A stretch of DNA of 64,000 nucleotides from an uncultured virus (IMG/VR IMGVR_UViG_3300021400_000004) (lineage: Duplodnaviria; Heunggongvirae; Uroviricota; Caudoviricetes). A model generated the notes under the pieces. That model did not search any database and had not been told where the DNA came from. It was given only the letters and a program-made list of their open reading frames with translations. Made by a program: the position numbers and the translations under genes. Positions 6,057 to 20,880 of this stretch are shown here, piece by piece (the stretch's first letter is position 1; every line of letters begins with the position of its first letter). Location of the stretch: IMG/VR virus record IMGVR_UViG_3300021400_000004; one strand, 5' to 3'.

Positions 6057-6514
6057 AAAAAATGGAATAAAAGTGCTTACATTTTCCTTTTCAAGTATTT
6101 TGTTCCATTTTTGAATCCAATTTTATTATATATAGAAGCGTATTTTTAGTTAGTAAAATACAAGGTTTTACTTGTATACAAGTTTTTATTTATTTTTGTT
6201 CCATTTTTGAATCCGTCTCTATATATATAATAAATCCGGATTTAGAAATGGAACAAAAATAATAGTTTTTATTAGAGTAGAAGTAAAAGTATTAGAGCAG
6301 ATAGATTTTAAAAGATTTTTTTTAAGATTCTCGGAGTTTAAGAAAATCCTTTAAAATCCTCGGAGTTTTAAAAAATCCTCGGAGTGTGGTGCCCAAACTT
6401 CCTCCCCCTATACCACCTTACTCTTCCTCATGACGTCCGTTAACAAAAGTCAGTCTCCGTAAGATTAGTTTTAAATCGAGGACCGAAGGTCCGAAGATTT
6501 AAAACTAATCTTAC
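6057..6514. repeat. Origin-like non-coding repeat region
   Basis: TTTTGTTCCATTTTTGAATCC at 6098 and 6194 with inverted variants at 6057 and 6238; three CTCGGAGT repeats (6329-6385); 56-nt inverted repeat at 6459-6514; flanking AT tracts. Confidence 0.6.
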
Positions 6515-6902
6515 TTTTCTTTCCTTTACTTTTTTAAAAATATATATTATAATTAAAGTGAATAAATATAATAAATATAATATTAAATATTTTATAAAAA
6601 ATCAAATCATCTATTTTTGGGAAGCATATGATGCGGGCGCGCGTGCGAGAAGCAAAAAACAACTATCAAACTCCCCTGGACTCCCTTAAGGCGGCCGCTG
6701 CCGCCCTGAGCATTCAAACATTCAAATAACCAGTGCATAAAGTCATATGCGGGCGCTCGTCTAATGCAGTGGTGGACGAGGGTAAAGCAGTAGAAACTTA
6801 ATAAAATTAAGATTTTTTATTAAAATATTAAGAAAATTAAGTGAAAAGGCTCATTTTTGGGAAAAAATAAAGTATTTTTTGTAAAAAAATTTCAAAAATT
6901 AA

Positions 6903-6961
6903 TTGACAAAATGAGGTTTCTGTGGTAAAATTCGGCATGGAACCGATGGTTCGCATGCCGA
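6903..6961 (+). ncRNA. Hairpin-family element 1 (variant) with sigmaA promoter
   Basis: TTGACA-N17-TAAAAT (TG-extended), then TCGGCATG-G-AACCGATGGTT-CGCATGCCGA. Confidence 0.45.
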
Positions 6962-7046
6962 CAAGCTATTTTTAGGAAAAAATAATGAAAAAATAGTAAA
7001 TAAAATGCAAAAAAATAACATTTTATAGCATTTTATTAATAAAAAA

Positions 7047-7074
7047 CGGAAGATTTGCGCACGCAAATCTTCCG
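7047..7074 (+). ncRNA. Hairpin-family element 2 (loop-less variant)
   Basis: CGGAAGATTTGCG-CA-CGCAAATCTTCCG, followed by ACAAG and a terminator hairpin. Confidence 0.45.
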
Positions 7075-7130
7075 ACAAGTAAAAAATGCGCCTTTCAGCG
7101 CATTTTTTTGTTTTTTAGGGGGCAACCGCC

Positions 7131-7514
7131 CTACTTTTTAGGTGGGCGGTGTTTGGTCAGCTTAAAGGTGTACTCTGCCCCCTCATAGCTAAAAGCTATT
7201 TCGGTTTCAGTTTTTACTGCGGTTACGTCTGCCCCGATTCCCTCTAAAAGGGTTTTTAATTCAGCGAGCAACCGCCCCTTTACCTCGTCAACCTTGCGCA
7301 CCTTTTCAGCCTTTTTTCTTGGCTTTGCGCTTTGCTCATAACGTCTTTCCCCCTTGACGTCCTGTGCCTTTTTGGTTTCCTCAGTTGGTTCAATCTTGCC
7401 CTCTTCTTCAAGGATAAGGTCGCAAGCTTCTGTGATACTGATTTCAAGGCTCTCAACGTACTTATCAATAAGTTCATCAGATACTTCAAAACCTTTGTAT
7501 TTCATTTTTATCAC
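7131..7514 (-). CDS. Hypothetical early protein
   Basis: 127 aa; own promoter, GAGGTG RBS and terminator at 7081-7109. Confidence 0.7.
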   Translation of the reverse strand: MIKMKYKGFEVSDELIDKYVESLEISITEACDLILEEEGKIEPTEETKKAQDVKGERRYEQSAKPRKKAEKVRKVDEVKGRLLAELKTLLEGIGADVTAVKTETEIAFSYEGAEYTFKLTKHRPPKK

Positions 7515-7578
7515 CTCTCTTGTTTTTCTTTATTATATCATAGGGGCTGGCGGTTCGTCAACCCCTATTTTATATTTT

Positions 7579-8280
7579 TTAAGAAAAACATTCCTTGCGC
7601 ATTGGCTTGTGCTTTGCGAAACAATATCTTAAAATTTCTTTTTCAATCAAAACGTCCTCAAGTCCAGTGTGACTTTCAACAAAATCAACATCATTTGTTA
7701 TATATTTATAAAGGACTTCCGCTTTTACTTGCGGTCTTGGTGTTTTATGCTTTGTAATAAAACCATTTTCAAAACAGAAACGTCTATAACTTGGTGTTTT
7801 TACAATAACGTCCTGAGCCATTTTCATTGTATCCCATATTTCACAACCATAAGGGAGAAAATATCTATACTTTGACTTTGTAAGCCATCTCTGTGTGTTG
7901 TTTGTTGCTCCATAGTCAAAACGCATATTGTGTGCGCAAATTGTTTTTGTATTATACTTTTTAAGAGTATCTGCAAGGTCTTTTTTAATTTCATACCAAC
8001 TTGCAACCTTGCGCTTGCCGTTTTCTATATCTTCATAATACTGTGGAAGTTTATCGGCATAATAACTTGACTTCATTAACTCTTTTTCGTCATAGAATAT
8101 ATCTCTATTTACATATGACTTTGTTTCATACACATTTCCGTGTTTATCAACAACCGCCCAACCTACATCATATACCCACATATTATTTGGGGTTACGCTC
8201 TCAATTTCTCTATCAAGTGGACAAGTTTCAGTGTCAATAACTACAATATAATGCTTTCTTCTGTCAATACTCATTTTCAT
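7579..8280 (-). CDS. DEDDh-family 3'-5' exonuclease
   Basis: VIDTET (ExoI), AHNMRFD (ExoII), ESHTGLED (ExoIII). Confidence 0.8.
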   Translation of the reverse strand: MKMSIDRRKHYIVVIDTETCPLDREIESVTPNNMWVYDVGWAVVDKHGNVYETKSYVNRDIFYDEKELMKSSYYADKLPQYYEDIENGKRKVASWYEIKKDLADTLKKYNTKTICAHNMRFDYGATNNTQRWLTKSKYRYFLPYGCEIWDTMKMAQDVIVKTPSYRRFCFENGFITKHKTPRPQVKAEVLYKYITNDVDFVESHTGLEDVLIEKEILRYCFAKHKPMRKECFS

Positions 8281-8396
8281 TTTTCCTTTCTCTAACCACT
8301 CTTTTTTGTGGTGTACTATAATATTTTACTTTGGCGGTGTTTTACAAGATTTTATTCCGTCAACTTGCGTTCCTTACATTATATATATTATCATAT

Positions 8397-8864
8397 TTAT
8401 GCTACATTGTCAAGTATTTTTTCAAGTTCTTTCAAAATATTTTCATTTGCGTTTACAGTTGCGCCTAAATTCCAACCTTTGCGTACTTTTTCATTATCAT
8501 CAAATAATATCTGAAAACCGCCCCTTTTTCTTGTACAATTAGCTTTTGTAGTTCCATATTTCACAAGATGTATCTCGTCATATGGAAAACCATATTTTGT
8601 AAGCCATTCAAGTTTAGCCTGACGAACCATGTCATCATATCTTTTTGTGCTATCTTTTGCAAGCCACGTTGTGACTACTATACGATAACCATATGCTTTC
8701 AAACTATTAAGAATTTTAGCCATATACTTCATATTATAAAGCGGCTTCGCTTCTACATATGGTCTTGTGTTTTCATTTCTTAAATCATTCAACCAACCCT
8801 CTACACCATAAAGGTCAGCGATTGTTCCGTCCATATCAAATACAAGTGTTCTGTTCATAGGCAT
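8397..8864 (-). CDS. HAD-family phosphatase / 5'-nucleotidase-like
   Basis: VFDMDGTIAD, IVVTT and ILFDD motifs. Confidence 0.75.
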   Translation of the reverse strand: MPMNRTLVFDMDGTIADLYGVEGWLNDLRNENTRPYVEAKPLYNMKYMAKILNSLKAYGYRIVVTTWLAKDSTKRYDDMVRQAKLEWLTKYGFPYDEIHLVKYGTTKANCTRKRGGFQILFDDNEKVRKGWNLGATVNANENILKELEKILDNVA

Positions 8865-9060
8865 TTACCCCTTTCCTTTACTGTATCTTTATTATATCAC
8901 TTGCGGTTGCTATTGTCAAGCACTTTTTTTATTTTTTTGTGCTTGCTTGGTGCTTACCGCTCCTTACATTATCTATTATAACAGATTGATTATAAAATGC
9001 AATATACAAAATGCACAAAGTTTCAGGAAAAAATTTGTGCAAAATTTTTTAAAATTTTAC

Positions 9061-9125
9061 TTGACAAAAAAGCTCGACGGGTGTATAATGGAAATTTGGC
9101 AAGCTGTCGGCCGACAGCTTGCCAA
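9061..9125 (+). ncRNA. Hairpin-family element 3 (loop-less) with sigmaA promoter
   Basis: TTGACA-N17-TATAAT; perfect 30-nt palindrome TTGGCAAGCTGTCGGCCGACAGCTTGCCAA starts 7 nt after the -10. Confidence 0.6.
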
Positions 9126-9193
9126 CAAGGAAAATAGCCATAGTTTTCACTATGGCTATAAGGAAAGGAGGTTTCAATTTTCATCTCGTTGAG

Positions 9194-9272
9194 TGGAGCG
9201 AACGGGACTCGAACCCGTAGCATAGGTAATAATTTGTCACCCACATGGTCTGTTCCAGTTAGTCATCGCCCC
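9194..9272 (-). tRNA. tRNA-like RNA with Ala-type acceptor (G3:U70, A73) and non-canonical D and anticodon arms
   Basis: GGGGCGA/TCGCTCC-A acceptor; ACGGG-TTCGAGT-CCCGT T-arm; ~9-bp central stem with CAAATTA loop; no D-stem; no encoded CCA. Confidence 0.6.
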
Positions 9273-9323
9273 TTATTTATTTGTGACCCCCTACCCTATT
9301 GGATAGGGGGAGTAACCTTTGGA

Positions 9324-9650
9324 CTACTCGGCAATCGCAAACCTTGTAGGTGTCTTACCCTTGCCGACAGTCTTTTCAACTGCGCCCTCTTCAACAAGCG
9401 ACTTCATCAGTGCGCTTATCTTCTGGCAAGAGTGTCCGAGTTCAACACCGATTTCTGTTGCGGTACGACCTCTTCCGTCTGCAAGGTAAGCAAGAATATC
9501 AGCCTTGATACCCTCATTAGCCACCTGAACCTTAGTTGGCTTTGAGGACTTTCTATCAAGAGAAGCAATCATCTTCTCAGCGACCTCTCTCATTTCATCT
9601 GTGCAACCCTCAAGTTCCATTGTCTTTGTAAGAAATTCTCTCTTTGTCAT
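9324..9650 (-). CDS. Winged-helix DNA-binding protein, paralog 1
   Basis: C-terminal TATEIGVELGHSCQKISALMKSLVEEGAV wHTH; clear paralog of 12628-12942. Confidence 0.7.
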   Translation of the reverse strand: MTKREFLTKTMELEGCTDEMREVAEKMIASLDRKSSKPTKVQVANEGIKADILAYLADGRGRTATEIGVELGHSCQKISALMKSLVEEGAVEKTVGKGKTPTRFAIAE

Positions 9651-10076
9651 AATACATCTACCTCTTTCTTTTTTAATATTTTTTATTTGTTATCTTATGT
9701 ACTTATTATAACTCTTTTTTATTTAGTTGTCAAGTATTTTTTTTATTTTTTTGAGATTGTTTGTAATGGGTTTTCTCTATTAACCGCCTTGCAAGGTGAT
9801 GATCTCGGTCAGAGGAGTTTTCCGCACTCGCTATTTAAACGCTCTCTTTATCTTTTGTAAGTTCATTATATCATAGTGGAAAAGGATTGTCAAGACCTTT
9901 TTTCAAATTTTTTTCAACCTTGTGTGTACCTTGACTTCCTTACGCACTTGACAGGGTTTTGTTGCAAGTTTTACCAGCCTTTTCCTATTTGATAATTAAA
10001 TTATAACAAAATTTTTTAGTATTTGCAAGTACAAGATTTTTAGGAAAATTTGTGCATTTTGCACAATAAAAAAAGC

Positions 10077-10151
10077 TTGACAAAAATGGCGCGGCGGGTG
10101 TATAATAGAAATTTGGAGCCTTGGCGTAAGGAACGCACGCCAAGGCTCCAA
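10077..10151 (+). ncRNA. Hairpin-family element 4 with sigmaA promoter
   Basis: TTGACA-N18-TATAAT, then TTGGAGCCTTG-GCG-TAAGGAACGCA-CGC-CAAGGCTCCAA. Confidence 0.65.
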
Positions 10152-10167
10152 TGAAAAGAAGAGGACT

Positions 10168-10338
10168 TTAATAGTCCTCTTCTACAAAATCTTTTACCTC
10201 TATTTTATCTATAATCCCCTCAACCGCAAGCCGCCTTGCAAATTCTAATACTTCGGGATCATCTGTAATCCAGTTTATTTCTTTATCAGCATACTGTTTT
10301 AAACGTAAATCTTTAATAGTTACAATTTTAGTATCCAT
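10168..10338 (-). CDS. Small early protein (56 aa, below the ORF-track cutoff)
   Basis: MDTKIVTIKDLRLKQY...VEEDY; GAGGT RBS; own promoter. Confidence 0.6.
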   Translation of the reverse strand: MDTKIVTIKDLRLKQYADKEINWITDDPEVLEFARRLAVEGIIDKIEVKDFVEEDY

Positions 10339-10601
10339 TTGTTATACCTCTCTTTCGTTTTCCTTTATTGTATCATAGGGTTGATTATTTGTCAACTATT
10401 TTTATGAATAAAATTCATTAATTTTTCTTTTGATTTAACCATTTCATTTATTATACATTGAGGGGTTTGTTCTTGTATGCATTGTGCAATATAGTCATTT
10501 AGCATAGTAATAATTATTAGTTCATCTATTGTATTAAAATCATCTTCCATTTTATTATATTTTTCTCCTTTTCTTTATTATACTACATTTGCGGTTGTTT
10601 G

Positions 10602-10859
10602 TCAACCGCAATATAGTAAAATTATAAAATAAATATTCAGTGCTACACTTGATAAGTGCATTACAAGCCCATTTATGTGGCGGTCAACCGCAAGGTCTTT
10701 TATAACACCGATAAACGCAATCGCAAGTCCGAACCATGCAATAGACAATCCATAAATCATAATGAGAATTACATTGATTACAGTTATTAAGCACCGCAAG
10801 TCATTGTATTCAAATCTGTATCTTCCTTCGATTTTAAAAAACTCTTTTACTTTTGTCAT
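10602..10859 (-). CDS. Small membrane protein
   Basis: Hydrophobic helices; AGAGG RBS. Confidence 0.6.
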   Translation of the reverse strand: MTKVKEFFKIEGRYRFEYNDLRCLITVINVILIMIYGLSIAWFGLAIAFIGVIKDLAVDRHINGLVMHLSSVALNIYFIILLYCG

Positions 10860-10876
10860 AGGCTTTTCCTCTCTTT

Positions 10877-11044
10877 CTATTTGATACTTATTAAACGTAA
10901 ATAGTTGTCTTTTGCTCTTTGTTTGCTTAACTGTCTTGTGTTTTTAGGTAAATGCTTTCTTTTTCTTTCGTTATTATTAAAACTGTTATAATACTTTATT
11001 AAAAACATTTTCCTTAATTTATGTATTTTCATTTTTGAACTCAT
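10877..11044 (-). CDS. Small basic protein
   Basis: Start at MSSKMK after a GAGG RBS; own promoter. Confidence 0.5.
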   Translation of the reverse strand: MSSKMKIHKLRKMFLIKYYNSFNNNERKRKHLPKNTRQLSKQRAKDNYLRLISIK

Positions 11045-11103
11045 TTTTATTTCCTCTCTTTCGTTTTTCTTTATTATATCACAGGGTTGACTAATTGTCA
11101 ACC

Positions 11104-11304
11104 CTAAACATTTTTTACTACAAGGACGGTTTCTTGAAGTCCGTCATCACTTGCAATATACATTTCAAATGCGGTATCCCATACTCTACCGAGCTTGATG
11201 AAATTAACCTGCGGTGAATTATCCATCATATCGAAAAAGAGTTTTGCATTTAAAAATGTGTTGTTGTTTGCTTTAAGCCAATTCTTAATTTCCCATGTGT
11301 ACAT
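11104..11304 (-). CDS. Hypothetical early protein
   Basis: 66 aa, GAGGT RBS, own promoter. Confidence 0.6.
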   Translation of the reverse strand: MYTWEIKNWLKANNNTFLNAKLFFDMMDNSPQVNFIKLGRVWDTAFEMYIASDDGLQETVLVVKNV

Positions 11305-11448
11305 ACGCTTTACCTCTCTTTCTCTTTTCTTGAGTTAATTATATCATGCGGTGGTGCGGTTGTCAAGCACTTTTTTGAAAAATTTTGCGGAGGCGCGCCC
11401 GGGCAAAAAATGCAAGGCGGTTCATGTCTCCATGACCGCCTTCCCGCA

Positions 11449-11616
11449 TTAATAAGTATCAAGTCCAAGCATTTCCGCTTCAAAATCACTAATTTTATCA
11501 ATCACTCTTGGAGCTTCAAAATAAAGGTTGGCAGTTGCTTTTGCTTCTTCTTTGTTAAGAGCTTCTACTATAAAATCTTCACCTGTTATATCATCTGTCA
11601 TTAAATAGTTCTTCAT
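11449..11616 (-). CDS. Small acidic protein (55 aa)
   Basis: MKNYLMTDDITGEDFIVEA...EAEMLGLDTY; GAGGT RBS. Confidence 0.6.
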   Translation of the reverse strand: MKNYLMTDDITGEDFIVEALNKEEAKATANLYFEAPRVIDKISDFEAEMLGLDTY

Positions 11617-11868
11617 TTTATTTACCTCTCTTTTCCTTTAATGATTTTATTATTTTATTCTTCCCAATGTTTTATAAGTTCTAAAGAGCCGTCCTTTTGT
11701 ATTTCATAATGTTCATATCCAAATTTTTTATACTTGACTGGAATTTTATTACACACAAGAATAGGTTCTTTATCTGCTTCACATTCCCACGGGTCACTAA
11801 GTGGTGTACATTTTACAATTAAATATTTCATTTTATTTACCTCTCTTCCTTTTGATAAATCTATTATA

Positions 11869-12054
11869 CTATAATTTCACTTTTGTGTCAAGTGCTTTTC
11901 TATAAAAATTATCTAATTCTACAAAAGTTATAGCGCCATTCAAATAACCTTTTACCATAATTCTAAAATACATAGATATTTTATGATCTTTACCAAATCT
12001 ATTTTCTATCTCTTGTGTCATCCATTTAGTTAAACGTACTCTTGAATTTTCCAT
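11869..12054 (-). CDS. Hypothetical early protein
   Basis: 61 aa with AGGGG RBS. Confidence 0.5.
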   Translation of the reverse strand: MENSRVRLTKWMTQEIENRFGKDHKISMYFRIMVKGYLNGAITFVELDNFYRKALDTKVKL

Positions 12055-12214
12055 TTTTACTACCCCTTTCTTTTGATAAACAATCTCTCATAGCTTGTTT
12101 CATTTCTTCATATTTTTTTAAGTAGTAATGTTTATTCATACGTTCTTTACTTAATTTATAATATACTTTTGCACTCTTATAATAAACGTAAAACATTAGA
12201 TATTTATTTGTCAT
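12026..12214 (-). CDS. Hypothetical early protein
   Basis: 62 aa with RBS and own promoter. Confidence 0.5.
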   Translation of the reverse strand: MTNKYLMFYVYYKSAKVYYKLSKERMNKHYYLKKYEEMKQAMRDCLSKERGSKNGKFKSTFN

Positions 12215-12359
12215 TTTTATTACCCCTTTCCTTTTTCTTTATTATAACAAATTTTTATTTTCTTGTCAACTATTTTTGCAATAGCTATAGTCAATATTTT
12301 ATTAACTTTTAAAGCAAAGTTAGAGGAAACGAACAAATTTCCGCCGGCTTAAAAAATTG

Positions 12360-12433
12360 TTGACAAAAACTTGTAAGTATAGTATAATTAAGGAAGCGGC
12401 TCTGTTGCGGAAGGGACGCCCGCAACAGAGCCG
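12360..12433 (+). ncRNA. Hairpin-family element 5 with sigmaA promoter
   Basis: TTGACA-N17-TATAAT, then CGGCTCTGTT-GCG-GAAGGGACGCC-CGC-AACAGAGCCG. Confidence 0.65.
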
Positions 12434-12512
12434 ACAAAAAGTTGAGCCAAAGGCGGTAAACCTTTGGCTCATTTAGGAAAGGAGGATTTTATATCAAACC
12501 TTGTCTGTATTA

Positions 12513-12585
12513 GTAGGGTAAAGCGGAATCGAACCGCTTATCAGCTCGCAACTTCTTGGAGATTTTACCTTTAAACTATACCCTA
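12513..12585 (-). tRNA. tRNA-like RNA with disrupted anticodon arm
   Basis: TAGGGTA/TACCCTA acceptor; TAGTTTAAAGGTAAAA D region; AAGCGG-TTCGATT-CCGCTT T-arm; central CTCCAA-GAAG-TTGCGAG lacks a 5-bp stem with 7-nt loop. Confidence 0.55.
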
Positions 12586-12627
12586 ACCCCCACCCCAACC
12601 TTGCGGAGTGGGGGAGTAACTCACAGA

Positions 12628-12942
12628 TTACTCTGCGAGGTGGTAGGTTGCAGGGTTCTTGCCCTTACCCTCTACCTTTACGACACTCTCAATCTGCTTG
12701 AGGAGTGCGGCTACCTTTGCGGTTGAGTAGCCAACCTCATCAGCGATTTCCTTTGCGGTCATCGGCTCTGCGCCCATAACCTCAACAATCTTCGCCTTAA
12801 TACCCTCGTTCTCAATCTGCGCCTTTGTCGGCTTTGAGGACTTTCTATCAAGACTTGCAATAGCCTTTGCCATTACCTCTCTCTCTTCTGAATCCTCTGC
12901 AAACATTTCCATAGCCTTTGTGAAAACTTCTCTCTTTGTCAT
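12628..12942 (-). CDS. Winged-helix DNA-binding protein, paralog 2
   Basis: Shares MTKRE...IASLDRKSSKPTK...NEGIKA...GKGK with 9324-9650. Confidence 0.7.
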   Translation of the reverse strand: MTKREVFTKAMEMFAEDSEEREVMAKAIASLDRKSSKPTKAQIENEGIKAKIVEVMGAEPMTAKEIADEVGYSTAKVAALLKQIESVVKVEGKGKNPATYHLAE

Positions 12943-13628
12943 AGTACATCTACCTCTTTCTTTTTATTTTGTAAGTTAATTATAACAAATCTTTTTTATT
13001 TTGTCAATAGTTTTTTTATTTTTTTCGGTTGCGCAACCTTTCGTTTCGGTTTTGTTTTCGTATAACCTGTGGAAGAATATCCTACCCTGAAGTACGCCAG
13101 TCCGCCATTTTTTTAGTTTCGTATTGAACTCAGAGTGAACACTGGACTGCTCTAAAGTCAACCAATCTCACGAGTTTGGTAGCCGATGTATGACACAAAA
13201 CCATACATAGAGGAGTTTTTATGACTTTGCTTTGTCATTTTCTATATTTATTATATCATAGATTTTCTAATCTGTCAAGCATTTTTTTAAAATCTTTTTT
13301 GATTTTATTTCTTGAAGGGTGTTTAGCATCTTTATGCACCCTCGTACCTGTATTCATATTGTACCATACTCTTTGACTTTTGTCAAGTAGTTTTTTCTTA
13401 TTTTTTTCAACCATTTTTTTATCCTCTTTCCATTTGGTATTTATATTATAACAAATTTTTATTTATTTGTCAACTATTTTTTTATTTTTTCTGTGCTTTT
13501 TCGGTTTAGCACAGAGAACCGTGGGAGGTTCTTGCCTCACTTTCTATAATGATTATAGCAAAATTTTATTTGTATGTCAAGCACAAATTTTGGGAAAATT
13601 TTTGGTTATTTTGCACAAAAAATTTTAC

Positions 13629-13702
13629 TTGACAAAAACTTGGCGGTATGATATAATGGAATTTTGGCGCGAGCACGAGAAAGGGCACCCGTGCTCGCGC
13701 CA
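13629..13702 (+). ncRNA. Hairpin-family element 6 with sigmaA promoter
   Basis: TTGACA-N17-TATAAT (TG-extended), then TGGCGCGAGC-ACG-N12-CGT-GCTCGCGCCA. Confidence 0.65.
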
Positions 13703-13730
13703 TCAAAAAAAGAGGGCGGATATCCGCCCT

Positions 13731-13925
13731 CTACTCTCCAAAAATCTTATCCTGACAAGTAGGACACATACCTGAAATAATACACTCTCTATCTGTTGCG
13801 GACAGATAAGGGAAAGCGTTCTGCACAAGTGCGCCACTCTCATATTTTTCAAGGTCAGTCTGATTAACTTCAACTGCCCAACCCTTGTTACAAAATACAC
13901 AATTTCCGATAAGATTAACTCTCAT
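13731..13925 (-). CDS. Small zinc-binding protein
   Basis: CVFC...CPTC; GAGGT RBS. Confidence 0.6.
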   Translation of the reverse strand: MRVNLIGNCVFCNKGWAVEVNQTDLEKYESGALVQNAFPYLSATDRECIISGMCPTCQDKIFGE

Positions 13926-13994
13926 ATTATTTACCTCTCTTTCTTTTGATATACTTATTATATCATGTAATGGGTTGTTTGTCAACCCCTTATT

Positions 13995-14294
13995 TTAAAT
14001 TTTTTCAAGAATATCATCTGCGGTAAGCCAACCGATAACATCATCTTCGTCATCATCACCCATCTTACTTACTTTTTTAACAATAGCTGAACCCATAATC
14101 TCAAGTAGTCCTCTCTCAGAGCCATAGCTACCTTTGTTAATTACCGCATCCCAAAGTCTATTACCCTCGTCATCATAGACGATAACCTGAGCGCCCCAAT
14201 TAGTAATTAACTCTGTACTTATCTTGAGACCTTTCTGATTAAGACCAACTACAAGCTTTGTAAATTCATTAAGATTAAGTTTTGTATCTACCAT
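13995..14294 (-). CDS. Hypothetical early protein
   Basis: 99 aa (GSYG..GLLEIMG...VIGWLTA), RBS and own promoter. Confidence 0.65.
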   Translation of the reverse strand: MVDTKLNLNEFTKLVVGLNQKGLKISTELITNWGAQVIVYDDEGNRLWDAVINKGSYGSERGLLEIMGSAIVKKVSKMGDDDEDDVIGWLTADDILEKI

Positions 14295-14430
14295 ATTTGT
14301 TTACCTCTTTCCTTTCATTACTCTTTTGTTTGTTTCTATAATAATATTATCAAAAATTTTAGCAAAAGTCAAGTAAAATATTGCACAAAGTTTCGGGCAG
14401 TTGGTGATTAAAATTTGTTCAACTTTTCTC

Positions 14431-14503
14431 TTGACAAAAAAACTGTGATGTGGTATAATGGATTTTTGGGGCGCGTGCGGAAGGTACGCGCGCACGCGCC
14501 CCA
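14431..14503 (+). ncRNA. Hairpin-family element 7 with sigmaA promoter
   Basis: TTGACA-N17-TATAAT (TG-extended), then TGGGGCGCGT-GCG-GAAGGTACGCG-CGC-ACGCGCCCCA. Confidence 0.65.
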
Positions 14504-14860
14504 TCAAATAAAAAAGAGCGATTAATCGCTCTTTTTTGCTCTTGCAAGCTCTCTGAGCTTTGCAACTTTTTTTGCGTTATACTTTGGTTTCTCACCCTTG
14601 ACATTTTCAAGGATTACCTTTGCGTCCTTGGGGGCTTCCGCCCTTGTCTTGTAAACCTGACCATTATACTCATATCTTACTTTTCTCATACTCGTTTCCT
14701 CTCTTTCTTTATCTTTTGTAATTTTATTATAACATATTTAATTAGGGCTGTCAACTATTTTTTTTAAGAAAATGCCTGTTTTAAAAATGCGGACTTGCTT
14801 TTTAAACTATGCAAGTCCGCCAAAGGAAAGAAAGGCATATCAAATTATATCTACTACGAA

Positions 14861-14933
<73 letters not shown>

Positions 14934-15131
14934 CTATTTATCACCATTTTGTGCGGTTTGGTGATTTTCTCTTGCGTTCCTCTCTGAGTTCGTCATACCA
15001 ATCAATGAACCCAGCAATTCCGCAACCTATAACTACTACACAATTAACCATTCCAAGAATTATTATACTATTCATACCTTTTACCTCTCTTTCATTTTCT
15101 ATATATATTATAGCAAAAAATTTTTAATTTG

Positions 15132-15317
15132 TCAACAATTATTTTTTGCGCCACAATTTTCACAATAATTTGGATATATACCTTGTGTTGACATCATTGA
15201 CCTGCGGTAATTACAAAATGGACATTCAATTTGCCATGTATATGATTGACAATCAATATCAATCCATTTCCCCTCTAATCTTGAGTTTTCAGTTTTATTA
15301 ATTGTTATTCTTTCCAT
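15132..15317 (-). CDS. Small zinc-ribbon protein
   Basis: CPFC...YCENCGAK. Confidence 0.6.
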   Translation of the reverse strand: MERITINKTENSRLEGKWIDIDCQSYTWQIECPFCNYRRSMMSTQGIYPNYCENCGAKNNC

Positions 15318-15438
15318 TCTTTTGTCCTCTCTTTCATTTTCTATATATAGAATAGCAAAAAATTTTTATTTTGTCAACAATTATTTTTTGCACAAAATTT
15401 CAGGAATTTTTTTGTGCAAAATTTTGCGCAAAAAACAC

Positions 15439-15513
15439 TTGACAAATTCCGCGATCTGTGCATACAAATAAAGAGCGGTGCGGCTGCGGATAATGCAGTC
15501 GCAGCCGCACCGC
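15439..15513 (+). ncRNA. Hairpin-family element 8
   Basis: TTGACA with a weak -10 (TACAAA), then GCGGTGCGGCT-GCG-GATAATGCAGT-CGC-AGCCGCACCGC. Confidence 0.6.
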
Positions 15514-15528
15514 CCAAGACGAGGAGAT

Positions 15529-15720
15529 TTACTCCTCGTCCTCTTCAAAAACCGCTACGAGATCTGAGCTGTCACCAGCTACCGCCCACACATCCCACCA
15601 ACCGCCATTAGCTTCAATGGAGGTTATATGAGTATCAATTCGTGGGTTGATGTCTCCGCGCTCAACCTCTGTACAATTAAGTTCCATAAGACCCATTTCT
15701 GAAAAATAATGAAGTATCAT
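15529..15720 (-). CDS. Small acidic protein
   Basis: Start MILHYF after a GAGG RBS; own promoter. Confidence 0.55.
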   Translation of the reverse strand: MILHYFSEMGLMELNCTEVERGDINPRIDTHITSIEANGGWWDVWAVAGDSSDLVAVFEEDEE

Positions 15721-15809
15721 ATTTTTTTCCTCTCTTTCCTTTTTCTGATTATATATTATCATATTAAGAGTTGTTTGTCAACAACTATTTTTATTTTTCA
15801 TATATGACC

Positions 15810-16118
15810 TTAGCAATATGCTAAGGTCATATTTGCCCACTTTAAAACTGAGATCTGATTGCAAGCCCGCCCGATTGTAAGGGCTTCTTTTTTCGTATTT
15901 ACTCTTTTGCTTTTATCTATATACCATATGCCATTAGCAAACCATAAACCACAGTTTCCGCCGTATGCTTTTATAAGACCTATAACTTTTGTTATATCAG
16001 TAGTTTCTACACCTTCAGTTGCTACTTGCCAACCGGATTTATAAACAATCGGCTTTCCATTCTTTAAAGTTAAACCACCATTATTATTAATTTTGCGGAG
16101 GGTTCTAATATTTATCAT
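15810..16118 (-). CDS. Hypothetical early protein
   Basis: 102 aa; hairpin-split SD leader. Confidence 0.65.
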   Translation of the reverse strand: MINIRTLRKINNNGGLTLKNGKPIVYKSGWQVATEGVETTDITKVIGLIKAYGGNCGLWFANGIWYIDKSKRVNTKKEALTIGRACNQISVLKWANMTLAYC

Positions 16119-16274
16119 AATCTTTTACCTTTAGCCTTTCGGCTTCCTTTCCTTAACTCTGATATAATATTAACACATACTAATATAAAATGCAAGCGTT
16201 TTGAATAAAAAAGTTGTACAAAAAATCAGGAGGATTCTGGATTTTATTTGTGCAAAATAACTATAAAAAAGTGC

Positions 16275-16456
16275 TTGACAAAATGTCCACCAAGGGTGTA
16301 TAATAGTTTGCCGGCACTTCGAGGAGCGCCGGCAACAACGGATCCGGGCGTGTCCTCGAACATCTGTTTTGCGCGCAACCGGTTGCGCAAAGTCGAACAC
16401 CTGTTCAAACAGACAAAGCGGCAGGCTGGCGGTTAAAGCCTTCGCCAGCCTGCCGC
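16275..16456 (+). ncRNA. Longer structured RNA ending in hairpin-family element 9
   Basis: TTGACA-N18-TATAAT; hairpin at 16308-16335; multibranch segment; then GCGGCAGGCTG-GCG-GTTAAAGCCTT-CGC-CAGCCTGCCGC (16418-16456). Confidence 0.55.
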
Positions 16457-16824
16457 CCAACACAAAAAAAGAGAGCTTTCCCCAAGCTCCCGTGGGCGCA
16501 TAATAAGTCTGCGACTCTTGACATTCGTTCCTATGGCTGAACACCGTAAATTTGCCCCCAATATCTTTTAGGCGAGACACCTTTGGGAAAGGTCCACCGT
16601 ACTTCATGTCCATCACTGTTATTAATCGGGCGAGGTTTCAAGACCCTTACACCGCCCCCGGACTGTAGGCTCGGTCGTCTTCCTTAACTTTGTAAACTCA
16701 TTATACCACCTAAAAATGAATATTGCAATAGGCAGAATACACAAATATATCGGGATCTGTTTGTGCAGGTTGCACAATAACAAACAACGAATAAAAAAAC
16801 TGCCTCCTATATATAAAACAATCA

Positions 16825-16863
16825 GCGGCGCGTCGCGGTACAAACCACGCGTCGACGCGCCGC
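16825..16863 (+). ncRNA. Hairpin-family element 10
   Basis: 39 nt, GCGGCGCGTCG...CGACGCGCCGC arms; core spacing off by one. Confidence 0.5.
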
Positions 16864-16938
16864 GCCCGCCTTTTATATTTTATAAGAGCATTTTTATAGG
16901 GCGGTCAGCCATATCAACCGCCCTATTGTATTTTTTTA

Positions 16939-17136
16939 TCAGTAATTTGAGTACCAACCGCCAAATTCTGCTCGTCCTTTGACTTCGGTATCAATTAATA
17001 CCGTTGAGCCTATACGGCGGTATACCTCAGGCATAGAACACATCAAAATGTATTCTTTCCGGGCTTCTTCCCAAGATTCTTGGGTAACGGTATCTCTATA
17101 TTCTTCTTTTGTTGTAGGGAATAATATTTTGTACAT
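16939..17136 (-). CDS. Hypothetical early protein
   Basis: 65 aa, GAGGT RBS. Confidence 0.55.
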   Translation of the reverse strand: MYKILFPTTKEEYRDTVTQESWEEARKEYILMCSMPEVYRRIGSTVLIDTEVKGRAEFGGWYSNY

Positions 17137-17178
17137 AATTTTTACCTCTCTTTCCTTATCGCTATATACCTTGAGGCT

Positions 17179-17337
17179 TTAAGCCTCAAGGTAAAACTTC
17201 TCTTCTCTGTTCATTATGATTACAGCGTCAAGATTGAAAAACCTTTTCTCTTTTGCATAGAAGTTAAAAACATCCATAGCCTGCTTATAACCTCTAACCT
17301 CAATTACTTCCTTATTACCTAATAAAATTTCATACAT
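17179..17337 (-). CDS. Small early protein (52 aa)
   Basis: MYEILLGNKEVIEVRGYKQAM...FYLEA; hairpin-split SD. Confidence 0.55.
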   Translation of the reverse strand: MYEILLGNKEVIEVRGYKQAMDVFNFYAKEKRFFNLDAVIIMNREEKFYLEA

Positions 17338-17540
17338 AACCTTTTACCTTTGCACCGTTGCGGTGCCCCTTTCCTTTTGATACCCTAATGATACTACTTT
17401 ATTTTCTACTTGTCAATACCTTTTTTTAAAAAATTTTTTTGTGGCGGATCACTTATAAAAATAAAAATGGGAATAGGAAAAAATAAACAATCAGCAAAAA
17501 AGTGCTTTAAGTTTTTTTGAGCATATGGAACAATCATTTA

Positions 17541-17579
17541 GCGGGCTGCAGGCGACTTAGACTGTCGCCACCAGCCCGC
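17541..17579 (+). ncRNA. Hairpin-family element 11 (internal-loop subfamily)
   Basis: GCGGGCTG-CAG-GCG-ACTTAGACTGT-CGC-CAC-CAGCCCGC. Confidence 0.6.
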
Positions 17580-17634
17580 CCGCCCAGCTCTTAAAAATTA
17601 GGGCGGTAGTGAGTATCTACCGCCCTTTATTGTC

Positions 17635-17901
17635 TTATAGGGCTATCTCTATGCTCTGATACTGATTATCAAGACATATATAGACGATAACTTTGTAACA
17701 CTCAACACCATATCTGGCGTGAGTATTGTTGAAGTAGTCCCAAAAAGCTGGGGCTAAATCCTCATACTCGTCAGATACGTTATTTATATCTGATACGAGA
17801 TAGTCCTCATACCAACACTCGTCAAGACCTACAGTAGTCTTAAAGAATGCTCTAATCGGTGCAGCGTAAGTATCCATCTTAATCATAACATCGTTATTCA
17901 T
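17635..17901 (-). CDS. Acidic hypothetical protein
   Basis: 88 aa with RBS. Confidence 0.6.
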   Translation of the reverse strand: MNNDVMIKMDTYAAPIRAFFKTTVGLDECWYEDYLVSDINNVSDEYEDLAPAFWDYFNNTHARYGVECYKVIVYICLDNQYQSIEIAL

Positions 17902-17984
17902 AATAAACCACCCTTCCGCCTTTAAAGGCTAAAAACTTTATTTTTCATTATAGGGCGGTCGGTTGAACCAACCGCCCTTATTTG

Positions 17985-18266
17985 TTAGTGAATAGATACG
18001 TTATTATTGTATAAATCTATATCTATCCAATCATAATCGTGTTTACTGTCGGAAAGCTCAACAGATGACACGTTGTATGTTGAACACATTACGTTAATAA
18101 AATCCGCCATATCCTCAACCGGAATTTCCCAGTCCTCAAAACCGCAACTTGTCGGTAAATCATCAGCGTAAATAGTAACGCAAATCTTTTCCCAACAACT
18201 AACCTCTTCGGCTCTTCTCATAAGTTCTCTGTACTCTCTCATAGAATAATTTGTTTTTCTTGACAT
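17985..18266 (-). CDS. Acidic hypothetical protein
   Basis: 93 aa with RBS and promoter. Confidence 0.6.
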   Translation of the reverse strand: MSRKTNYSMREYRELMRRAEEVSCWEKICVTIYADDLPTSCGFEDWEIPVEDMADFINVMCSTYNVSSVELSDSKHDYDWIDIDLYNNNVSIH

Positions 18267-18519
18267 AGGCTTTTTCCTCTCTTCCTTAAAACAAGTTTTT
18301 TAGTTCCGCAAGTCACCTTGCAAGTGTAGAATATCAAATTGCGGTTATAATGTCAACACTTTTTTTAAAAATTTTTTTTACTTTTTGAAAAATGACGTTT
18401 TTGCGTTGTTTTTAAGGGTATTGTTTTTTTAAGGTCCACAATAAAAGGAAAAACAACAAACAATCAAAAAATCAAAACTCAATTTTAGAAGATTTGAACC
18501 ACTATATACAAACATATGG

Positions 18520-18556
18520 CGGCCTGCAAGCGAAGTGAACTGTCGCCACCAGGCCG
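18520..18556 (+). ncRNA. Hairpin-family element 12
   Basis: CGGCCTG-CAA-GCG-AAGTGAACTGT-CGC-CAC-CAGGCCG; identical to 19550-19586. Confidence 0.6.
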
Positions 18557-18630
18557 ACGTTCAACCATTTATATTTTCATACTTAAAGGGTATGGATATT
18601 ATCCATACCCTTTTTATTTAGGGGACTGCT

Positions 18631-18924
18631 TTAGTAGAAGCAGTCCCAATCCATATCCCCGTATCCCATACCCAATCCGCTGAATGGGATTGAAGAGTAC
18701 TTCCTCTCAAGGAAGCATCTTGATTCAGGTCCATAGATGCTTTCCCATACCGCCTGAAGCTTGCGGTTGGTTTCCTGCTCCCATACAAGGAATGCATACC
18801 ACATAGCGGTATCATTTTCGTCAAAGTCAGGAAAAGTATATTCCTGCTCAAGTTCTGGAGCACCATATGCTCTCATGTCATCACCAAGTTCATTTCTTAC
18901 CATAACTACATATACTCTACTCAT
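18631..18924 (-). CDS. Acidic hypothetical protein
   Basis: Start MSRVYVV after a split SD. Confidence 0.6.
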   Translation of the reverse strand: MSRVYVVMVRNELGDDMRAYGAPELEQEYTFPDFDENDTAMWYAFLVWEQETNRKLQAVWESIYGPESRCFLERKYSSIPFSGLGMGYGDMDWDCFY

Positions 18925-19004
18925 AAAATTCACCTTTCCGCCTTAAGGCGTCCTTTCCTTTTTTTGATATTCGGGCGGCGGCTCTGACCACCGCCCATTG
19001 TGTT

Positions 19005-19223
19005 CTACCAGTCTAAATCCTTGGAGAGAATAACCTCTCCAAGCTTCTCAAGTAGGGTCTCAAGAGTTATCCATGTATTGATAGAGATAACTTTTGTCTG
19101 AAGAGCCATATGGCTCATTCCACGAAGTCTTCCTAAACGGTACTGGTATTCACAGAACCTCTTACTTGTTTTGGCTTCTTCAAACCACCACCTGAAATCC
19201 TCAAAAAACTCTTTAACGTCCAT
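19005..19223 (-). CDS. Hypothetical early protein
   Basis: Start MDVKEFF after GAAAGGTGG. Confidence 0.55.
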   Translation of the reverse strand: MDVKEFFEDFRWWFEEAKTSKRFCEYQYRLGRLRGMSHMALQTKVISINTWITLETLLEKLGEVILSKDLDW

Positions 19224-19533
19224 AAAAAACCACCTTTCCCCTTGCCTTGCAAGGAATATAAAATTATCAAAGTACCCTGTCAAGTCGTCCTTGACAATAC
19301 CCACTTTAAACCATTACAAAAAATTTGTCAATACCTTTTTTCAAAAATTTTTCAAAAAATTTTTTTTGTTGTTTTTCAATCTTTTAAAACCTTTAAAAAC
19401 AATAATTATTTGTTGTTATAAAAAATTTAAAAAAAATAAAAATTGATCTTTTTTTTTACTGTGAAAGATCTTTTTTGTGAAAACAAAAAACAACAAATAA
19501 ACAGAAAAATCAAAATTTAATTTTTTAGAATAG

Positions 19534-19586
19534 TGTTATAATCATTTAGCGGCCTGCAAGCGAAGTGAACTGTCGCCACCAGGCCG
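19534..19586 (+). ncRNA. Hairpin-family element 13 with extended -10 promoter
   Basis: TGTTATAAT followed 7 nt later by an exact copy of element 12. Confidence 0.6.
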
Positions 19587-19860
19587 ACAAATTCCTAAGA
19601 ACTCATATATACTTGTTTATGGTAACGCGAACCTGCTTCGCGCAATTCTTTTCTCTTAAAAACAAGAAAACTGAAAAACTTATTTATTTCAAAGTTTTTC
19701 AGTTTTCCTTTTGTTTGGCTTTACAGTAAAACTACTGTAAAGCCTTCCTTCTGAAGTTTTGTTATCTCTTCAGTAGAGAAAATCTCTACTAAACCGATAA
19801 CCATTCCATTTAAACTAATTCTTGCCATTTTTTATTTACCTCTTCTTTCCTTTTATATTC

Positions 19861-20139
19861 ACTCTTGCAAGTCTTTAAATTAAACTTGCAAGAGTTTTTT
19901 AATTTATTTATTGCTTGTAAATATTTCTACATTTGTTACCTTTATTTCACTGTTAAAATAGTGTTCAGTAATAAGTTTACCTATTGCTTGATAAACTGTA
20001 ATTTCTGTTAAAGGAAAAACATTCGTTACAATTGATTCATCTTCAAACTTAATTCTGTAATTATATTTCATAATTTTTTCTCCTTTTTATTTAAAAAATT
20101 TTTTCTTTACTCTTGCAAGTCTTAAAGACTTGCAAGAGT
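19861..20139. repeat. Twin hairpins ACTCTTGCAAGT...ACTTGCAAGAGT
   Basis: Near-identical stems at ~19861-19895 and ~20109-20139, each followed by a T-run on the + strand. Confidence 0.6.
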
Positions 20140-20156
20140 TTTTATTTTGTTAGAGC

Positions 20157-20333
20157 TTACAGAGTCTCTACTCTGTAAACTCTGCCGCCCTTAAGGTAGG
20201 CGATAACATCAGGCTCGCCAACCTTTGCGAACTCTATTGAGTTCTTTGTCTCAACTATCGGGTAGAAGCCAAGGCACTCTGCCCAAATCTTCAACGTAAC
20301 GCTATTCATTTTCTCAATAACTCCTAATTCCAT
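20157..20333 (-). CDS. Small early protein
   Basis: Start MELGVIEK after a split SD. Confidence 0.55.
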   Translation of the reverse strand: MELGVIEKMNSVTLKIWAECLGFYPIVETKNSIEFAKVGEPDVIAYLKGGRVYRVETL

Positions 20334-20606
20334 AATGTTCACCCTTGCGGTTGCCTTACAACCGCCCTTTCCTAAAAAATTTTCCGTTCCTTTCGGAACT
20401 GTCTTTACTATACACCCATTCAAAAAATGTGTCAACACTTTTTTTAAAAATTTTTCAAAAAATTTTTTTGCTTTTAAAAATAACAGTTTTTCGTCATTCT
20501 GAAAACAATAAAAAAAGATTGTTTTGCCTTTTTGTGATCTGATCAGCAAAACAATCTGTCAAGAGTTGAAACTAAAGTTTTTCAAACCTAATTCTATTAT
20601 GTCTAG

Positions 20607-20643
20607 CGGTGTACCAACGAGCAAAGCTGTCGTCGCCACGCCG
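20607..20643 (+). ncRNA. Hairpin-family element 14 (diverged)
   Basis: CGGTGT-ACCA-ACG-AGCAAAGCTGT-CGT-CGCC-ACGCCG; 37 nt. Confidence 0.5.
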
Positions 20644-20742
20644 AGCTAAATTGACGTACATAAAAAATTTTTTAAGTAGGTAGCAGGGGGTGTATTATGT
20701 GAATATAAAGAATGTACGTTCTATTTATCCTTTTGGCACCCC

Positions 20743-20837
20743 AATTCTCAGAGAAAATAATTTTTGAATTGAAATAACGAAAGTAATTCTTAAATCTGAA
20801 TTCTCAGAGAAAATATTTTTTTTAATCGAATAACGAA
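20743..20837. repeat. Imperfect 39-bp direct repeat
   Basis: AATTCTCAGAGAAAATA...TAACGAA at 20743 and 20799. Confidence 0.6.
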
Positions 20838-20880
20838 TCCTCTAAAAAATTACACACCTACCCTCTATTCCAATTACGAA

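Follow-up and report, generated by a model that had tools for sequence, protein, structure and literature searches.

A candidate end-of-operon module of backward promoters and fast-changing hairpins in the early region of an uncultured gut phage

The window examined in this paper is the whole 64,000-nucleotide stretch of an uncultured virus of the Caudoviricetes (IMG/VR record IMGVR_UViG_3300021400_000004), and the subject is an array of GC-rich hairpins and promoters at positions 6903-20643. The window is phage DNA, encoding a portal, a terminase-like protein, a tape measure of 2800 amino acids, and an anaerobic ribonucleotide reductase. Even the closest named phages are only distantly related: the portal of the human-gut phage phAss-1 is 39.7% identical, and in the Enterococcus phages EF1 and VRE9, of about 140 kb, the portal is about 30% and the sigma factor about 38% identical to those of the window (38.6% for the sigma factor of EF1, which is cultured). 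The public DNA runs that contain the window are animal gut metagenomes. A phage sigma factor gene is found at 21542-22669, and a block of plus-strand genes begins at 21542.

Genes of the region from 5.3 to 21.4 kb lie on the minus strand and are small ORFans with AGGAGG-type ribosome sites. Between 5 and 22.5 kb, 106 promoter-like sites were counted, compared to 65.1 +/- 8.4 in shuffles, together with 37 terminator-like sites, compared to 10.7 +/- 3.5. The pattern TTGACA-17/18-TATAAT is matched there at all 12 positions 23 times, 16 times on the gene strand and 7 times on the plus strand. From 8900 to 21500, and likewise in relatives, perfect consensus promoters are extraordinarily dense, such that nearly each small early gene owns one; the pattern gives 9-35 exact matches per related record on one strand, and a reversed control pattern 0-1. 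The region from 5 to 22.5 kb is of the host-takeover type and is read by the main sigma factor of the host. The array itself may be a module that recurs at operon ends throughout the early region of a large phage with a low-GC Firmicute-type host, a description we give with rather less than even confidence. Comparison of the early proteins with Pfam (47 early-region and neighbouring proteins) and PHROGs returned no RNA-binding or RNase family.

An earlier note on this DNA had placed 14 hairpins in the array, starting at 6932, 7047, 9096, 10113, 12397, 13665, 14467, 15475, 16418, 16825, 17541, 18520, 19550, and 20607, and all of them were confirmed. Folded as RNA, 13 of the 14 are more stable than any of 200 dinucleotide shuffles (z-scores of -3.65 to -7.60); the hairpin at 20607 is a weak exception (z -1.58), with 17 of 200 shuffles equally good. 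The proposed size class of 37-39 nt is real, but it holds ten hairpins as the stems are drawn, not eleven; those outside it are at 6932 (30-33 nt), 7047 (28 nt), 9096 (30 nt, a perfect palindrome with a 4-nt loop), and 17541 (39-41 nt). The stems are interrupted at 16825 and in the four copies from 17541 to 20607. Loops measure 9-12 nt in 10 of the 14 hairpins and mostly 8-13 nt in units generally, and their motif is semi-conserved and oriented, purine-rich and then G/A-C-G-C. The nine RCG-N11-CGY cores reported before were matched as strings together with their loops, including the purines at loop positions 5 and 7 and the C at position 8. This core occurs 25 times in the window (4.76 +/- 1.87 in shuffles, none of 100 reaching 25), and 20 of the 25 occurrences fall within 7.9-21.4 kb. 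Two further descriptions had to be given up. The left arms do not lack common sequence, as GC-rich ends are shared (TTGG/TGG/GCGG...CCAA/CCA/CCGC), and the array has no true period of about 1 kb, as the spacing (407-2284 bp) tracks operon length. Among units 10113-14467 (n=4), loop identity is 0.71 compared to 0.49 for the 5' arm. Loops were not significantly genome-specific, with an identity of 0.481 within and 0.451 between genomes (permutation p = 0.07).

The hairpins belong to no known family in Rfam, as had been supposed: at the gathering score only the sole clear tRNA of the region, tRNA-Lys(UUU) at 14861-14933 on the minus strand, passes, and at E <= 5 over 6000-21600 nothing credible falls on a hairpin. 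Weak Rfam matches to microRNA, small nucleolar RNA, and the SR6 antitoxin family were taken as chance. Mimicry of a tRNA minihelix with CCA, the sarcin-ricin loop, the CsrA GGA loop, or the signal recognition particle hairpin was dropped by eye, the motifs being inconsistent across copies.

Along the plus strand, each unit shows the same order of parts. The reverse of the next operon's gene promoter is followed by an inverted repeat, TGCACAAA-N14-16-TTTGTGCA with a TTTcaGGAA centre, then by a backward promoter, a GC-rich hairpin of 12-16 bp, an A-rich spacer (CAAAAAAG), and finally the terminator of the upstream minus-strand operon, here called T1. The backward promoters are a distinct class, with TTGACAAAA, a GC-richer spacer, often GTGG before TATAAT, and GGAA after it. 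Those at 9061, 10077, 12360, 13629, and 14431 match TTGACA-17/18-TATAAT at 12 of 12 positions, in agreement with the earlier note; the promoter at 6903 matches at 11 of 12, and an additional 12/12 plus-strand promoter is found at 16275. It was also correctly noted that these promoters oppose all local genes and that no credible plus-strand open reading frame (ORF) lies behind them. Plus-strand ORFs such as 9189-9545 were rejected, as conserved genes lie opposite them, proper starts are missing, and they are not retained at the paralogous unit. In the five consensus units of the window the stem begins at the 7th-9th nucleotide past the -10, as first described, leaving a spacer of 6-8 nt; elsewhere the spacer is mostly 5-8 nt. 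The fixed spacing indicates that the hairpin is tied to an RNA 5' end. The proposed placement of the hairpin at the predicted +1 fits these five units, but not 16418, which lies about 110 nt downstream of the 16275 promoter.

The distinctness of the class can be seen in counts from backward promoters with a hairpin and gene-direction promoters. GG stands directly after the -10 in 14 of 31 of the former and 5 of 141 of the latter; TTGACAAAA is present in 24/31 and 21/141, respectively; and TGCACA/TGTGCA occurs within 90 nt upstream in 25/31 and 18/141. The arrangement TTTGTGCA-N8-30-TTGACAAA-N14-16-TATAAT has at least 120 matches in bacterial genomes and metagenome-assembled genomes. Among the matches listed, most are from Clostridia (Oscillospiraceae, Ruminococcus, Acutalibacteraceae) and several precede tRNA genes, and a strong hairpin follows 10 of the 120 listed host-type promoters with the same upstream element. 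The upstream repeat is thus of a host type, and these matches hint that the host may be of the Oscillospirales type.

The hairpins are not merely terminators of the minus-strand genes, since a separate T1 with a U-tract stands between gene and hairpin for 12 of the 13 hairpins that are not themselves a T1. The hairpin at 7047, previously counted in the family, is instead the T1 of unit 0 (7047-7074, minus strand), an ordinary terminator outside the hairpin family with a 12-bp stem and then the T-run TTTTTTATTA; among the 14 it alone combines a short loop with a U-tract immediately behind the stem. The second hairpin said to follow each of the five promoter-hairpins is present. By a rough count, from a noisy parse of 120-nt folds in which long-range pairs spoil helix calls, a U-tract (at least 5 T in 8 nt) comes after the second hairpin in gene sense in 11 of 26 cases and in unit sense in 3 of 26. 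Terminators in unit sense are found as exceptions at 14510-14537, 17600-17626, and 18585-18613. As the U-tracts of the second hairpin are mostly in gene sense, plus-strand transcripts should continue as antisense RNA. The idea of discrete RNAs of 40-80 nt is not supported by this anatomy, most units having no plus-strand terminator. Gene-sense tails of the hairpins themselves are U-rich at 10113, 15475, 16418, and 16825 (5-6 T in 8 nt), and those of the other consensus-promoter units start with an A-run or are C-rich.

The same units exist in related IMG/VR contigs, and their anatomy is conserved across these phages. In seven non-redundant early regions, a minimum free energy of -15 kcal/mol or lower in the first 50 nt was found for 31 of 52 backward promoters, a set that includes some merely starting oppositely oriented gene blocks, compared to 3 of 141 gene-direction promoters. 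Within IMG/VR, TATAATGGAAATTYGG was found in 115 loci, 9 of which have a -35, and a strong hairpin is present in 9/9; about seven further contigs were added in this way, and the strict promoter pattern gave 4 loci only. In the 146-kb record G004, every backward promoter of this class falls within the early region, at intervals of 1.1-2.1 kb. The distant phage EF1 showed no more than two backward promoters, both weak and with short hairpins. The claim that structure rather than sequence is conserved was borne out by double-sided changes in 12 of 12 stem pairs among 26 hairpins from eight records, which align readily. Of the cells, 96.8% are paired, a percentage inflated by the choice of these 26 as hairpins, compared to 61.2% in shuffles, and none of 500 shuffles reaches the observed score; slid registers give 30-45%. 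Judged from this covariation, stem pairing is under selection. A 14-mer of the interrupted stems had at least 120 matches in IMG/VR, which were taken as chance, as among those listed 0 of 36 folding at -14 kcal/mol or lower show the interrupted-stem architecture; this motif is absent from the 141 collected loci.

The hairpin interior turns over fast. Between the window and its closest relative L009 (about 97% identical), summed over four units, identity is 392/400 in the 100 nt upstream, 138/144 in the promoter, 114/144 in the hairpin (indels not counted), 101/104 in T1, and 388/400 in the 100 nt downstream. The hairpin, which thus diverges about 7 times faster than the adjacent T1 hairpin, is a divergence hotspot between these relatives. 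T1 is also a structure-only element and lies 8 nt away, without such fast turnover. Compared to L009, the hairpins at 9096 and 10113 have been replaced outright between near-identical flanks (238/240 identical at 9096), with only the TTGG(C)...(G)CCAA base retained, and the hairpin at 12397 is identical. At 16418, comparison with the relatives L001 and L002 indicates a retained stem with an A-T to T-A swap and a new loop; the L001 loop is the same as in the paralogous hairpin, suggesting gene conversion. In several copies the palindrome is perfect, around a 4-nt centre that is itself palindromic (GGCC, GCGC, CGCG), and from their form these copies look newly made by inverted duplication. When metagenomes were scanned for alleles of the 9096 hairpin between its fixed flanks, one match was obtained, identical to the window.

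Two further observations were made in relatives. Two consensus promoters face each other across one short perfect-palindrome hairpin in L015 (4283-4320), L008 (2169-2192), and L019 (about 5484 and about 6420), and each facing promoter would begin its RNA with the same hairpin. Over 8839-20430, contigs of co-occurring relatives from the same gut samples join distant parts at repeated promoter sequences. These joints, drawn from four DNA runs with contigs aligned at 85% likeness and no usable view inside hairpins, weakly suggest frequent module shuffling.

The units differ in detail along the array, with the units read on the plus strand and each T1 on the minus strand. Unit 0 (6903-6964) has the promoter TTGACA-17-TAAAAT (11/12) and a hairpin at 6932-6961 (z -5.30). 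In unit 1 (9061-9125), the 12/12 promoter at 9061-9089 and a GGAAAT spacer lead to the hairpin at 9096-9125 (13 bp, loop GGCC); an inverted repeat TGCACAAA-N14-TTTGTGCA at 9012-9041 lies between this backward promoter and the next gene promoter (8919-8891, minus). The T1 of its upstream operon (9134-9159) has a U-tract in gene sense only and is 25/26 identical in L009, and the operon carries a winged helix-turn-helix gene (9324-9650) and a tRNA-like element (9194-9272). Unit 2 (10050-10151) consists of TTGTGCA-TTT-TGCACAA (10050-10066), a 12/12 promoter (10077-10106), and a hairpin (10113-10151, loop TAAGGAACGCA), beside the T1 of gene 10168-10338 (10157-10183). Unit 3 (12360-12433) has a 12/12 promoter (12360-12388) and a hairpin at 12397-12433 (loop GAAGGGACGCC); T1 at 12443-12471 ends an operon with a winged helix-turn-helix gene (12628-12942) and a tRNA-like element (12514-12584). 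A TGCACAAA half-site, a 12/12 promoter (13629-13657), and a hairpin (13665-13702) form unit 4 (13612-13702), with T1 at 13711-13732 reading AGAGGGCGG-ATAT-CCGCCCTCT and then TTTTTTT in gene sense. Unit 5 (14382-14503) contains a TGCACAAA site, a 12/12 promoter (14431-14459), and a hairpin (14467-14503, loop GAAGGTACGCG); the T1 of gene 14522-14689 (14510-14537) has an A-run and a T-run and is apparently bidirectional.

Unit 6 (15386-15513) has an inverted repeat (15386-15421), a -35 TTGACA at 15439, a poor -10, and a hairpin at 15475-15513 with loop GATAATGCAGT and a U-rich gene-sense tail; a T1-type hairpin (15518-15540) lies at the stop of gene 15529-15762. Unit 7 (16275-16456) starts from a 12/12 promoter (16275-16304) with its own +1 hairpin (about 16308-16335), followed by a conserved core of about 75 nt (16335-16415), the variable hairpin at 16418-16456, and a T1 at 16471-16491 (GGGAGCTT...AAGCTCTC and then TTTTTTT). 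Unit 8 (16760-16863) combines the inverted repeat TTTGTGCA-GG-TTGCACAA (16760-16777) with a weak promoter, and its hairpin (16825-16863) is imperfect (z -3.65). The interrupted-stem hairpin at 17541-17581 is followed by a bidirectional terminator (17600-17626), and that at 18520-18558 by a plus-strand terminator (18585-18613). The copy at 19550-19588 is identical to the 18520 copy and stands 6 nt past TGTTATAAT, an extended -10. The weakest copy (20607-20645) has CTGTCG.C..CC in common with the three other interrupted-stem copies.

Several sequences within or beside these units deserve description in their own right. The 16335-16415 core is almost invariant in three phages while the adjoining hairpin varies; in it, two GAAC-N4-GTTC/GTTT boxes, resembling the Firmicute LexA (Cheo) box, flank the palindrome TTGCGC.CAACCGGTTGCGCAA. 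The tRNA-like elements at 9194-9272 and 12514-12584, both on the minus strand, score 27.1 and 27.0 bits against an Rfam tRNA gathering score of 29 and are missed by ARAGORN; each follows one of the two paralogous winged-helix (MarR-like) genes, and in relatives tRNA-like 3' ends stand at the same module position. Between tRNA-like element and T1, GGAAAGGAGG is found on the plus strand at 9160-9175 and 12472-12486. This word or GAGAGGAGG, without a conserved ORF, comes just after T1 in units 9096 and 12397 and also in L015, L016, and L017. Read on the gene strand it is CCTCCTTTCC, like the 3' end of 16S rRNA. From its sequence, it may serve the backward RNA as an orphan stabilising Shine-Dalgarno or the gene-sense RNA as an anti-Shine-Dalgarno mimic. 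A minus-strand ORF at 16170-16616 (148 amino acids) is probably not real, as it reads through T1, hairpin, and backward promoter. A GC-rich stretch of about 220 nt without an Rfam match lies on the minus strand between a 10/12 promoter (16728-16700) and T1 (16491-16471), and this stretch, near 16470-16700, might represent a non-coding RNA.

The stretch at 6015-6900, bordering the array on the left, is non-coding and repeat-rich, with three AATCCTCGGAGT-like words, GTTCCATTTTTGAATCC in more than one copy, an inverted repeat of 18 bp (6459-6514), and an island rich in GC (6620-6790); it is possibly an origin, a packaging site, or an end-related site. HNH/NUMOD homing-endonuclease genes lie at 24830-25579 and 62464-63240, among structural genes and beside nrdD. 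A HAD domain of the 'Swiss Army Knife' RNA-repair type is encoded at 2890-3498 and a polynucleotide kinase/deoxyribonucleotidase-like protein at 8397-8864; these genes, beside a phage tRNA-Lys, hint at a counter-measure to tRNA cleavage.

The hairpin lies at a fixed distance from the backward promoter, nothing coding follows, and T1 stands between hairpin and gene, which points to a role of RNA on the plus strand. We tentatively favour, as a real possibility somewhat short of an even chance, the interpretation that these are non-coding convergent units, whose RNA would carry a stabilising stem-loop at its 5' terminus, run antisense into the end of an early operon, and restrain, insulate, or time that operon. 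In such an arrangement, T1 would end each minus-strand early operon, with the GC-rich hairpin a few bases beyond it and a full-consensus sigma-A promoter directly behind the hairpin on the other strand, aimed back into the operon. The non-coding RNA from this promoter would open with the hairpin as its first 30-40 nt. Its 5' end would be buried in the stem-loop, which in Firmicutes is known to block decay that depends on the 5' end; the orphan strong Shine-Dalgarno (GGAAAGGAGG) of some units might act as another known stabiliser. Since most T1 hairpins terminate in gene direction only, the RNA should continue past T1 as cis-antisense into the 3' end of the operon. There it could pair with the early mRNA, and polymerases could collide with those oncoming, such that early expression may be limited, insulated, or shut off, an action akin to that of lambda OOP RNA on cII but repeated once per operon. 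We infer the transcription start, the stability of the RNA, its antisense reach, and its effect on early genes from this arrangement.

Several points weigh against that interpretation. A 5' cap alone needs neither loops of 9-13 nt nor a semi-conserved loop motif, and the roughly sevenfold faster divergence of the hairpin compared to T1 is unexplained by it. The 16418 hairpin is at the 3' end of a plus-strand stretch of about 150 nt, not at +1, and promoters are poor at units 15475 and 16825 and at copies 17541-20607. Facing promoter pairs across one hairpin, as in relatives, are not predicted by simple antisense. The pairing percentage is inflated, as said above, and no RNA run is among the listed public runs containing the window. 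G-U pairs amount to 3.7% in unit sense and 5.6% in gene sense in the hairpins of 36 promoter-defined units, and to 8.1% and 6.0%, respectively, in T1. There is no clear strand signal in this asymmetry, and with G-U pairs similarly rare on both strands, the hairpin could be needed on both strands or as DNA.

The same scarcity of G-U pairs, as if both strands must fold, would suit a barrier to polymerase traffic. As an insulator of this kind, the hairpin would be a back-up terminator for read-through from the strong gene promoters, and a stable open complex or head-on polymerases would shield the promoter and upstream site of the next operon, with the plus-strand RNA a by-product. Its constant position just past T1 and ahead of the next promoter region agrees with this, as do the U-rich gene-sense tails at 15475, 16418, 16825, and 10113 and the facing pairs in relatives. 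Backward promoters also unite full consensus, extended -10, and GG after the -10, a combination that favours very stable open complexes, given the contacts of sigma region 1.2. However, gene-sense tails of the five consensus units start with AAA/AAAA or are C-rich (AAATTTCC, AAAATTCC, AAAAATCC, CTTCCTTA) and would make poor intrinsic terminators, and judging from known footprints, an open complex would cover about the first 20 bp of hairpin DNA and a read-through polymerase would stall before it had transcribed the hairpin. The tight spacing of -10 and stem would have no role in a barrier, and the long loops would go unexplained. We consider a barrier unlikely. Loops of this kind, with an oriented motif (purine-rich and then RC, often CGC) and better conserved than the arms in units 10113-14467 (0.71 and 0.49), would favour a model in which each unit makes an abundant 5'-hairpin RNA acting in trans or bound by a protein, its loop being read by some factor. 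This could be a phage regulator on the nascent RNA, in a multi-copy, nut/boxB-like manner running opposite to the genes, or else a titrated host factor of defence or RNA decay. The promoters are among the strongest possible, plus-strand terminators follow copies 17541 and 18520, and no part of the module evolves faster than the hairpin interior, as would be expected in an arms race. On these terms, the hairpins would be the element that does the work, and hairpin replacement between phages about 97% identical would be the trace of an arms race and not of palindrome instability, a proposition we greatly doubt. Most units have no plus-strand terminator, an orthologous loop has been fully replaced on a kept stem (16418 compared to L001 and L002), loops are not significantly genome-specific (p = 0.07), and the 47 early-region and neighbouring proteins include no RNA-binding Pfam family; such a role in trans appears quite unlikely.

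Two DNA-level explanations were also considered. E. coli polymerase pulls in T7 DNA, and host polymerase might likewise pull in the next segment from the backward promoters, if the genome enters from the left, since early genes would then face outward and these promoters alone inward; one promoter per operon would be needed, since head-on collisions remove polymerases. The backward promoters all aim toward the rest of the genome, are found in the early region only, and have no ORFs behind them, and the non-coding repeat-rich 6015-6900 stands at the left edge of the array. Yet contigs of relatives run straight through 5-8.3 kb, and neither the need for a +1 hairpin nor the loops would be explained; an entry motor is highly improbable. 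A better case, though still a very unlikely one, can be made for recombination cassettes of the promoter-stem-loop (PeSL) type, in which promoter-hairpin repeats serve as homology for shuffling small early genes. Homology blocks of the window and its closest relative end at the repeated promoter regions 8268/8389, 11346, 14033, and 15387, and the same promoter repeats mark joints in the contigs from co-occurring relatives, a weak indication at 85% likeness. PeSLs are described as promoter and stem-loop repeats that bound indels (PMC2839356). The breakpoints here are at gene-direction promoters and 5' leaders, not at hairpins, which are the least conserved part of the module and poor homology, and the backward orientation, fixed spacing, and selection for pairing would be left unexplained. 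The cassette shuffling proposed in the earlier note finds some support in that homology blocks end at repeated promoters, but not in its likeness to PeSLs, whose promoter drives the next gene (PMC2839356), as the backward promoters do not.

If the interpretation as capped convergent antisense units is true, a phage clade controls its host-takeover genes by furnishing every early operon, at its end, with a convergent promoter of its own and a capped antisense RNA, a systematic and modular use of antisense; to our knowledge, phage antisense examples are single cases such as OOP. If the hairpin RNAs are instead protein-bound or decoys, they would represent a new class of RNA-based phage counter-measure. 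The module is a natural test bed for 5'-hairpin RNA stabilisation, for head-on polymerase traffic, and for a structural element that outpaces its neighbours, and for gut Clostridia, which are poorly studied, it offers promoters, hairpins, and terminators that are very strong and compact. It is notable mainly for being systematic, conserved across a phage clade, and directly testable.

Nothing like this module was met in the open-access literature on PeSL elements, SPO1 host takeover, phage early convergent antisense, and OOP. Individual features do recall known systems. GC-rich stems at an operon end are shared with intrinsic and bidirectional terminators, and 7047 and the T1 hairpins are ordinary members of that class. 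In contrast, the unit hairpins lie beyond T1, mostly have long loops, and in consensus-promoter units lack a proper U-tract on either strand; by loops and U-tracts, the units are not plain terminators. Lambda nut/boxB sites likewise place RNA hairpins with purine-rich loops close to promoters, several to a genome. However, boxB has a 5-bp stem and a pentaloop, stands beside boxA, and serves downstream genes, whereas the stems here are 12-16 bp with nothing coding downstream, and no boxA was seen, though none was looked for. Typical CRISPR repeat hairpins, the model for repeat-mimicking RNA anti-CRISPRs, are shorter than such stems.

PeSL elements share with the units the repeated sigma-70-type early promoters with a stable GC-rich stem-loop, dense among small ORFans, and perhaps the coincidence of repeated promoter sequences with mosaic boundaries between close relatives (PMC2839356, PMC4122927). 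The PeSL promoter drives a downstream gene, and the element ends with the Shine-Dalgarno and start codon of that gene (PMC2839356). The PeSL promoter runs along the genes and its stem-loop overlaps or flanks the promoter boxes; the present promoters run against the genes with no gene after them, the stem begins at a fixed 7th-9th nucleotide past the -10, and the hairpin is the most variable part of the module. By promoter orientation and the lack of a downstream gene, the units are not PeSLs. Stabilising determinants in Bacilli include 5' stem-loops and the STAB-SD, a stabilising Shine-Dalgarno (PMC3997798). The units resemble the Firmicute 5' stabilisers of the aprE, ermC, and cryIIIA leaders in having a stem-loop within a few nucleotides of the predicted 5' end; the -10-to-stem spacing of 6-8 nt fits a predicted start at or just before the stem, which in the stabilisers lies about 0-3 nt from the 5' end. 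Some units also carry, as with STAB-SD, an orphan GGAAAGGAGG without a start codon (9160-9175, 12472-12486). Those stabilisers protect coding mRNAs, whereas the units would cap non-coding antisense RNAs, and their stems are much longer, with long loops bearing a shared motif.

Lambda OOP is a single unit with its own terminator and an RNA of 77 nt, and P22 sar is a similar phage cis-antisense RNA. The overlap of OOP RNA with the 3' end of cII measures 52 nt, and OOP acts in part via RNase III (PMC5869508). Like OOP, the units have a dedicated promoter without an ORF, convergent on the 3' end of a phage gene, and their predicted RNA would overlap the end of the target message. Unlike OOP, most units are without a terminator of their own that would give a discrete small RNA. 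They occur as 8-13 units, about one per early operon, each starting with a 12-16 bp hairpin at the predicted +1 within a host-takeover region of the lytic type.

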